Made by a program: the position numbers and the translations under genes. Source: Ophelia neglecta (taxonomy: Eukaryota). Taken from it: DNA of 64,000 nucleotides. Positions 16,058 through 17,732 of this stretch are shown piece by piece. The number at the start of each line of letters is the position of its first letter. Positions within the stretch are counted from its first letter, which is position 1. The stretch covers positions 35,960,001-36,024,000 of the forward strand of contig OZ260662.1 in the NCBI GenBank assembly GCA_965285935.1, written 5' to 3'. Under the pieces are notes generated by a model. That model did not search any database, was not told the DNA's origin, and saw nothing but the letters and a program-made list of their open reading frames with translations.

Positions 16058-16174
16058 TAAGTGAGAGATAGTGTTCGAGGCTCCAGGGTTATTCATAATA
16101 AAGTGCGACAGGGCGCAGCCCTGGAGCACTTTATTAGGAATGACCCTGGAGCCTCGAACACTATCTCTCACTTA
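16058..16174. repeat. 117-bp near-perfect palindrome (DNA hairpin)
   Basis: 49-bp arms TAAGTGAGAGATAGTGTTCGAGGCTCCAGGGT.ATTC.TAATAAAGTGC with 2 mismatches, then a GA/GA mismatch, a 6-bp stem CAGGGC/GCCCTG and a GCA loop. Confidence 0.95.
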
Positions 16175-17732
16175 GTATAAACGTTTAAATAGATTTTGTT
16201 GGAATAATTATAAACCAGACAGTTGGCCAATGTGACCAAAATCCTAGACTGTGCTGCAGACACTGTCTGCTCCGCCCCTAGGTGGTCATTCGCTGGACAC
16301 TCGTCTGGCAATAAATGGACTGATATACAGGCCTAGTGATTTGATGTACAAAATTAATTATGCAGTGAACCTGTGTCCACAAGTAAGGCTAGGTATGCTT
16401 GATATGGTCCTGCTTCAAACAGGCGGGGCCCTGGCCATGAATTTAATTAACACAAATCACCTGATAGATTTACCTGCATCTACTAGGTTAGCTAGCCCTC
16501 ACTTGGTTTGCCTCATGGCCCAATATCCATAGGCTATACAGTTGAAATTTATGACAGCAATATGAAGGATACTGGTCTCTCAGATTTAGTGTTTAGCCAA
16601 TTTTGTAGCAACATTGAAAACAATTTGTTTGACGAAGAAACTTCATTAGAATTAAGTCAACTCCCGGTGGAGGAATTGTGCTATACATATATTCACAGGT
16701 ATGCAGTCAGGCAGTCACAGATTGTGCCAGACTATGCAGTCAGGCAGTCACAGATTGTGCCAGACGGTCAAGCCAGACAGTGACTAGACAACCGTCTACT
16801 ACAACATTATCAATAATCTTCTAGAACATTATCGATAATGTTGTAGTAGACAGTTGCCTTCCACCTTCCCCAAAAGAATCTTGACTTGTGACAATAGAAA
16901 CGTATACTAAGTGAGAGATAGTGTTCGAGGCTCCAGGGTCATTCCTAATACATGTACAAAATTAATTATGCAGTGAACCTGTATTAGTATACATTAGTAT
17001 ACGTTTCTATTGTCACAAGTCAAGATTCTTTTGGGGAAGGTGGAAGGCAACTGTCTACTACAACATTATCGATAATGTTCTAGAAGATTATCGATAATGT
17101 TGTAGTAGACGGTTGTCTAGTCACTGTCTGGCTTGACCGTCTGGCACAATCTGTGACTGCCTGACTGCATAGTCTGGCACAATCTGTGACTGCCTGACTG
17201 CATACCTGTGAATATATGTATAGCACAATTCCTCCAACGGGAGTTGACTTAATTCTAATGAAGTTTCTTCGTCAAACAAATTGTTTTCAATGTTGCTACA
17301 AAATTGGCAAAACACTAAATCTGAGAGATCAGTATCCTCCATATTGCTGTCATAAATTTCAACTGTATAGCCTATGGATATTGGGCCATGAGGCAAACCA
17401 AGTGAGGGCTATCTAACCTAGTACATGCAGGTAAATCTATCAGGTGATTTGTGTTAATTAAATTCATGGCCAGGGCCCCGCCTGTTTGAAGCAGGACCAT
17501 ATCAAGCATACCTAGCCTTACTTGTGGACACAGGTTCACTGCATAATTAATTTTGTACATCAAATCACTGGGCCTGTATATCAGTCCATTTATTGCCAGA
17601 CGAGTGTCCAGCGAATGACCACCTAGGGGCGGAGCAGACAGTGTCTGCAGCACAGTCTAGGATTTTGGCCACATTGGCCAACTGTCTGGTTTATAATTAT
17701 TCCAACAAAATCTATTTAAACGTTTATACTAA
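16172..17732. mobile_element. Foldback structure: 739-bp inverted arms (16172-16910 and 16994-17732) around an 83-bp spacer; probably a non-autonomous element
   Basis: The arms are reverse complements with about 9 substitutions by eye, and the ORF track shows mirror ORFs (16251+/17653-, 16508+/17396-). Each arm begins TTAGTATA and ends TATACTAA, and contains an internal hairpin (16794-16851) and a 33-bp tandem duplication. Confidence 0.9.

Follow-up and report, generated by a model that had tools for sequence, protein, structure and literature searches.

Animal Cryptons have been described as elements without detectable terminal repeats, for which a model of excision as a double-stranded circle is cited and from which deletion derivatives are known (Kojima and Jurka 2011, PMC3212892, in excerpt). 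Integron attC sites recombine as one folded strand and the single exchange is resolved by replication (excerpts of PMC2727003), the recombined strand shows a G:T and purine skew, and loss of its extrahelical bases favours the other strand (excerpts of PMC5027507). HINEs (HLE2) have a TT target, palindromes of 5-10 bp and a Rep-helicase partner (excerpts of PMC4067079).

We analysed a stretch of 64 kb (hereafter the window; C2:35,960,001-36,024,000 of the 762-Mb genome of Ophelia neglecta), which contains two inverted copies of a Crypton. The family resembles CryptonA as described in excerpts of PMC3212892 and the Glomhopper paper (PMC13465315) in its single DUF3504-type recombinase lacking an extra C-terminal domain, a large eukaryotic (likely animal) host genome, the missing target-site duplication and abundant deletion derivatives. 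It differs from the CryptonA of these excerpts in that its ends are asymmetric, it has a terminal hairpin of 109-111 bp and an internal mirror site, and it shows one-strand footprints and a defined target, YTA-N8/9-TAR. With Helentrons and HINEs it shares asymmetric subterminal inverted repeats, a terminal palindrome and the lack of target modification (PMC4067079, in excerpt), whereas its target is YTAN and not TT, its stem measures 57 bp and its partner is a tyrosine recombinase and not a Rep-helicase. The end structure had also prompted Helentron/HINE, Replitron and IS200/IS91-like HUH readings, which were abandoned on account of this partner.

As in the integron system (PMC2727003 and PMC5027507, in excerpt), there is one hairpin per unit, completed by end joining, with unpaired bases and a G:T/purine skew on one strand; for the Crypton we propose that the parallel extends to a single strand exchange and to bulge loss that would allow use of the other strand and reversed insertion. 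The Crypton hairpin is imperfect, bears strand-specific unpaired features and is conserved as a structure and not as a sequence, as expected for an attC-type site. Unlike integrons, the Crypton is eukaryotic, carries its recombinase gene inside the unit and has neither an attI platform nor cargo, and its targets are dispersed and degenerate. The DUF3504-type protein is no closer to IntI than to Cre, and the copies are dispersed, with no cassette array. Rolling-hairpin replicons of the parvovirus/AAV type possess a terminal hairpin of about 115 nt and an inverted dimer geometry resembling the composite, while the Crypton has no hairpin at the second end, no balanced flip/flop and no NS1/Rep.

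Anatomy of the composite insertion

The feature is almost certainly real and a composite of non-autonomous CryptonA elements. It measures 1,672 bp (16061-17732) and consists of two gene-less Crypton copies, a and b, placed back to back. The following parts were distinguished (positions in the window):

16057..16060, + strand: host target tetramer TTAA (YTAN), with the crossover just 3' of it; a single, unduplicated TTAA in the empty allele
16061..16171, + strand: left-end hairpin of copy a, 111 bp; its + strand has a c(GCA)g triloop and tandem G·A mismatches
16172..16186, + strand: internal mirror site TTAGTATAAACGTTT, near reverse complement of the right end
16172..16910, + strand: body of copy a, an internal-deletion derivative of the autonomous Crypton, of the majority sublineage
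16786..16859, no strand: 74-bp subterminal palindrome, retained even in the shortest derivatives retrieved
16907..16910, + strand: element-borne CTAA, right end of copy a and joint to the second copy
16911..16950, + strand: central hairpin remnant, 40 nt, exact reverse complement of copy a's bulge-less inner arm
16951..16993, + strand: 43-nt filler, made of one base, an exact 31-nt copy of 16344-16374 and a short end-motif duplication
16994..17732, - strand: inverted body of copy b; its end is the internal mirror site, whose CTAA (17729-17732) adjoins host DNA
17740..17742, + strand: host TAA, second half of the YTA-N8-TAR target

Read along the + strand, the order is host TTAA, hairpin, body a, CTAA, 40-nt hairpin, filler, inverted body b, CTAA and host DNA. 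An earlier note on this stretch had described a 117-bp hairpin followed by a 739-bp unit and its inverted copy, and this geometry held on recomputation. The hairpin has 57-nt arms (16058-16114/16118-16174, 93% complementary) and a loop of 3 nt, the inverted arms measure 742 nt (16169-16910/16994-17735, 99% identity), and 16903-16950 is 100% complementary to 16132-16179 (48 nt) in the right arm of the hairpin, as had been stated. The 739-bp bodies are also present, but what moves as a monomer is the hairpin together with the body (16061-16910, 850 bp) and not the body by itself. The computed repeat comparison likewise gave no target-site duplication at the composite, in agreement with the note.

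The hairpin of copy a is a rare variant, its inner arm being without the 2-nt bulge of the family. Folding of a natural junction (in the dimer L017) showed that the mirror site lengthens the hairpin once both ends are joined. Body a has lost 1,788 bp between two TGTGC repeats, with the deletion junction ending at 16681, and bodies a and b are not identical, differing by 9 substitutions across 739 nt. The filler stands in place of about 71 nt of hairpin and probably originated by repair of a broken palindrome centre. An empty-site haplotype, proposed earlier as a check, was found in contigs joining 16057 to 17730 and skipping exactly 1,672 bp (3/3 runs, one sample); thus, 16061-17732 is a precise, polymorphic insertion.

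Family, target site and recombinase

The unit is a young, non-autonomous, dispersed CryptonA transposon of 850 bp with about 270-320 copies. Candidate places in the genome numbered 322 for the body (40 scored, the best match at each being about 99% identical) and 315 for the hairpin (40 scored), while the 21-nt end motif had 267 exact genomic matches and the other exact end motif 222, each against 0 for the reversed control. About 110 of the roughly 300 copies were examined. Full-length copies deviate by 0.8% from the consensus on average (55 rows), and short derivatives of 210-340 bp keep all or part of the hairpin together with the last 147 bp. The dispersed family and its recombinase-coding long member bear out the earlier proposal of a mobile non-autonomous element. 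The same applies to its distinction from a MITE with terminal inverted repeats and target-site duplication, as the right end has its inverted-repeat partner inside the element, at a distance of 111 bp from the left end, and no duplication is present.

In the left flanks, host YTAN precedes the hairpin, with T or C in 108, T in 107 and A in 106 of 109 cases and a variable fourth base; at the right end, the element-borne CTAA was found in 107 of 110 flanks. The flank ends of 99 paired copies showed no match in 81 cases, a 2-bp match in 16 and a 3-4-bp match in two. Host TAR occurred at +8..+10 in 46/107 right flanks and at +9..+11 in 25/107 compared to a background of 3.2%, with a few of the counted flanks deriving from one host tandem duplication. 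Given this enrichment of TAR on the right and of YTAN on the left, the target is YTA-N8/9-TAR, to which the empty site of the composite conforms. Left ends without the inner arm (19/106) have mostly private junctions, although two sets look shared (L061/L090/L078 and L075/L093); the full stem may therefore not be essential. A 4.95-kb tandem on C1, considered as an autonomous array, was in fact a host duplication containing a 217-bp copy. Separately, a short Crypton copy (L083; C1:82.22 Mb) was seen to contain an element of about 1 kb that is unrelated to it and has terminal inverted repeats of its own.

From 46 regions fetched around unpaired ends, a longer copy with recombinase remnants was obtained, and its interior located the autonomous copy. 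This long member, whose existence the earlier note had rightly suggested to check, measures 2,599 bp (C5:3,874,115-3,876,713, - strand) and has the same ends. It contains an open exon/ORF of 432 aa and no other long ORF; a short upstream exon-like frame is shifted. In the Pfam search, only three families matched the 432-aa ORF, all of them recombinase parts (DUF3504, 6e-27; Phage_integrase, 2e-8; QRICH1), and neither GCR1_C or another accessory domain nor a reverse transcriptase was found. Six residues (R200, K233, H326, R329, H352, Y360) are invariant in 34 aligned proteins, i.e. the query and 33 chosen of 118 matches, and we take them to be the catalytic residues R, K, H, R, H and Y of known tyrosine recombinase motifs. 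With all of these present, the 432-aa exon represents a putative intact recombinase. Its nearest named matches are mollusc and starfish DUF3504 proteins (35-45% identity), and in a fold search the predicted structure (pLDDT 83.6) resembled QRICH1 and Cre, with an integron integrase at rank 30.

Regarding classification, the family combines a DUF3504-type tyrosine recombinase only, with R-H-R-Y and no accessory domain, no target-site duplication and a short repeat in common with the target (YTAN left, CTAA right), as CryptonA elements do. No relative was detected when metagenome contigs were scanned with a single protein or viral contigs with an alignment. Also present in the genome is a second young Crypton family of the same end design with about 50% protein identity and open recombinase frames of 440-448 aa (loci L147:607-3335 and L146; C7:59.34 Mb and C5:88.69 Mb).

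Hairpin shape and strand bias

When folded, the joined ends extend the hairpin across the crossover point and leave a spacer of 9 nt in the outer arm and 7 nt in the inner arm. The census of hairpins comprised 77 canonical 109-bp ends and 4 bulge-less loci (the composite, L032, L033 and L034), the retrieval having been enriched for the bulge-less allele. In the composite, both the left hairpin and the central remnant are bulge-less. DNA hairpins gain stability from sheared G·A pairs and GNA triloops.

A protein search of the genome revealed five further Crypton families (30 loci examined), giving six in total, A-F. Families A-E agree in the 9/7 geometry, in the fixed distance of a tandem G·A pair and in an apical G·A stem; the stem of family F is similar but carries two additional bases and three tandem G·A pairs. 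In family B, the CTAA end was present in 11/11 copies and TAR at +8 in 6/11. On the folding strand of the six families, G·A mismatches outnumber C·T by 30 to 0 and G·T outnumber A·C by 14 to 3. Five of the six fold better on this strand, while family D folds slightly better on the other one. The folding strand of family F is antisense to the ORF, by which a role of the hairpin as mRNA structure is disfavoured. Two further observations concern these families: in a distant recombinase family (L163, L164, L167), a hairpin of about 170 nt lies 3' of the ORF and folds on the antisense strand, and a second palindrome (50-74 bp) near the CTAA end, located at 16786-16859 in the window, has similar counterparts in families C and F (L158, L160, L163).

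The same features were counted in metagenome contigs, for which the best 80 of 292 loci were used, mostly from one assembly and 57 of them with at least 1 kb on each side. Among these best 80, a hairpin of 70-300 nt was located upstream of the recombinase in 48 and downstream in 2. In 52 upstream hairpins, 332 G·A stood against 61 C·T and 204 G·T against 71 A·C mismatches; per locus, G·A exceeded C·T in 42 of 48, was lower in 4 and tied in 2, and 8/9 loci outside the main assembly agreed with the G·A excess. Tandem GA/AG was found 76 times and its mirror form once in 44 loci. Bulges of 2 nt were more frequent in the 5' arm than in the 3' arm (25 vs 8), and the 2-nt 5'-arm bulge is the commonest outermost bulge, yet present in 12/44 loci only. 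Seven hairpins, picked as the best alignable, have 41 consensus pairs, 29 of them showing compensatory changes, with a common 2-nt bulge and tandem G·A. The one-strand bias of G·A and G·T mismatches and the 2-nt bulge across families point, by analogy, to an attC-like folded single-strand site.

Origin of the inverted dimer

Body a has majority-sublineage alleles. Body b groups with L088/L046/L038 (98/85 support), which copy a does not, and shares 163C, 394G, 404A and 496T with L088. An origin of body b wholly from another sublineage was weakened by its mosaic structure: sites 163-496 are as in the L088/L046/L038 sublineage, and the 230 bp nearest the centre are like copy a (AT insertion, sites 516-517 and 532), whereas the allele at site 641 is a change that corrects a palindrome mismatch. 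The central half arm differs from the outer arm of copy a at two sites. As these alleles show, the composite drew on at least two templates, and given the 9 differing sites and the partial other-sublineage alleles, the second arm is not a simple fold-back copy.

Among host bases other than G, the mirror site meets the flank as an end at one genomic place, i.e. the right boundary of the composite. The right end followed by GTGAGA occurs at 6 genomic places, namely the composite, four head-to-tail dimers and L032; in a genome motif search, 0/6 of these junctions continue into host DNA, all being element-element joints. No right joint keeps the overlap bases of the element, although biased repair after an exchange of both strands might leave the same picture. 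We infer a one-sided crossover at the element ends, with the element's own bases at the left joint. All four head-to-tail dimers (4/4) join copies differing by 9-15 substitutions; hence, the partners are independent copies, and insertion into an existing right end probably recurs. The dimers probably arose in this way, and rolling-circle concatemers were rejected as their source because of the same 9-15 differences.

Fold-back copies also exist. At L033:1501-1935 (C7:40.81 Mb), a bulge-less hairpin is followed by an inverted 95-nt copy of the element's own right end with two private variants, which is a same-molecule fold-back requiring joined ends and implies a circular intermediate. L032 has an inverted 26-nt copy of the right end, and such inversions are present in 3/4 bulge-less loci. 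The fold-back replication suggested by the earlier note thus survives as rare hairpin-primed fold-back within the family (L032, L033), but not in its parvovirus-type form. Contig depths gave no sign of free circles, the junction contig having about 5-fold the depth of a single haplotype, matching the 6 genomic junctions.

Based on hairpin shape and joint structure, we consider it fairly probable that the recombinase acts on a folded single strand. A copy would be released as a circle, in which the right end (CTAA) is joined to the left end so that the + strand can form a long hairpin. With its 2-nt bulge (9-nt vs 7-nt spacer), a GNA-type loop and sheared G·A pairs, this hairpin would represent an attC-like site. 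Of the two strands, the folded + strand alone would be exchanged by the recombinase, just 3' of YTAN in YTA-N8/9-TAR, and replication or repair would complete the insertion. After such a single-strand exchange the target would not be duplicated, and the bases at the left joint would in every case be those of the element. For the composite, copy a would have inserted first, at 16060/17733. A second circle with a bulge-less hairpin then probably recombined on the wrong strand at the mirror site and would have entered the right end of copy a in reverse, which would yield the observed order of parts. Finally, the centre of the resulting 1.6-kb palindrome probably broke and was patched with the filler, with local conversion between the arms. 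For this full scenario, in which two copies were joined by the family's own recombinase on a folded strand, we see slightly better than even chances. The a-like part of b near the centre and the two bulge-less hairpins count against it, as they also fit a fold-back from copy a. The left ends lacking the inner arm, the contig depths without a sign of free circles, the opposite strand preference of family D, the small share of 5'-arm outermost bulges in the other assemblies and a fold no nearer to integron integrase than to Cre weigh against it too. The wider proposal that animal CryptonA move by an integron-like pathway, in which the shape of the folded single-stranded junction of the circle (2-nt bulge, sheared G·A pairs, GNA loop) is what the DUF3504 recombinase recognises and one strand is exchanged, and that the dimer is a natural bulge-loss mutant with strand choice lost and backward insertion, may in our estimation equally well be right or wrong.

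An unlikely but still serious competitor is fold-back on a Crypton circle, in which the hairpin would prime synthesis back across the end junction and thereby turn copy a into an inverted dimer, about 500 bp would come from another copy through a switch of template or subsequent conversion, and the dimer would be excised and inserted by the recombinase as a unit with the far mirror site as right end. The inversions behind bulge-less hairpins and the near identity of b and a around the centre, with the exception of site 641, speak for this route. It would need a long ectopic switch for the four alleles that b has in common with L088, leaves the two differences between central half arm and outer arm to be accounted for, and has no counterpart in the other four dimers, which consist of independent copies.

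The classical Crypton model, which we regard as rather improbable here, would have a double-stranded circle and two strand exchanges, the hairpin being a binding site, cruciform or RNA element, and the inversion resulting from recombination between inverted sites of a dimer circle. It is the published model for Cryptons (PMC3212892, in excerpt), inverted arms and a spacer are arranged in the target as in ordinary tyrosine recombinase sites, and identical outer joints result if body b is inverted within a dimer circle; the one-strand mismatch bias, the antisense orientation in family F and the missing reciprocal joint class are left unexplained. An assembly or amplification chimera is very improbable. 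Palindromes are prone to fold-back artefacts, and the contigs show the empty allele and gave no confirmation of the filler, but the 9 arm differences include sublineage alleles found elsewhere, both outer joints lie exactly on the family's crossover motifs, and of the two flank haplotypes among the contigs one is identical to the analysed stretch. An integrated rolling-hairpin intermediate, parvovirus-like or HUH-driven, as favoured by the earlier note, is already largely refuted and scarcely credible: hairpin size and inverted dimer resemble such intermediates and partial core flips exist, but no monomer with a hairpin at both ends was seen (the long hairpin is at one end only), the core is flipped in 4/107 host-facing ends where about half would be expected (9/116 rows having been removed as junctions or inner arms read from the other strand), the tyrosine recombinase partner encodes no HUH nuclease, helicase or polymerase, and instead of inverted dimers as regular intermediates there is one full inverted dimer, with non-identical arms of two sublineages.

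A literature search, with Repbase reports and subscription journals outside its range, found among the papers listed no description of Cryptons with a hairpin, attC-like or single-stranded movement. New in this work are the inverted composite ending at the mirror site, its tie to the bulge-less hairpin, the empty allele and the self fold-back at L033. Crypton movement has rested on analogy since the first description; this family offers precisely defined ends, a consensus of the target, an empty allele, a putative intact recombinase exon and a natural bulge-less variant linked to an inverted insertion, and the mechanism thereby becomes testable with oligonucleotides and one protein. To our knowledge, structure-specific single-strand recombination is so far known from bacteria and their phages only. 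If true, the folded-strand proposal would provide a eukaryotic case and account for the copy gain of an element that has nothing but a recombinase. It would also give a clue to the way in which the ancestors of the Crypton-derived ZMYM/QRICH1/KCTD1 proteins bound DNA, and make available a compact integrase whose target is short and degenerate. By its structure, the composite further suggests that self-targeting can build a palindrome of 1.6 kb, which apparently broke in the host genome.

Further features were observed in the window. The insertion is flanked by paralogous exon-like segments on the minus strand (12375-13552 and 20759-22897; 41-72% protein identity), the two largest frames of which had no Pfam match. 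A pair of 3.1-kb inverted repeats (23373-26468/28162-31297; 95% identity, 1.7 kb between the arms) is unrelated to the Crypton family. A weak nucleoside hydrolase match below the Pfam cut-off was located at 35682-36176 (-), a Kelch-repeat ORF of 338 aa at 49362-50378 (-), and an array of tandem repeats (period about 50 bp) at 4302-4819.
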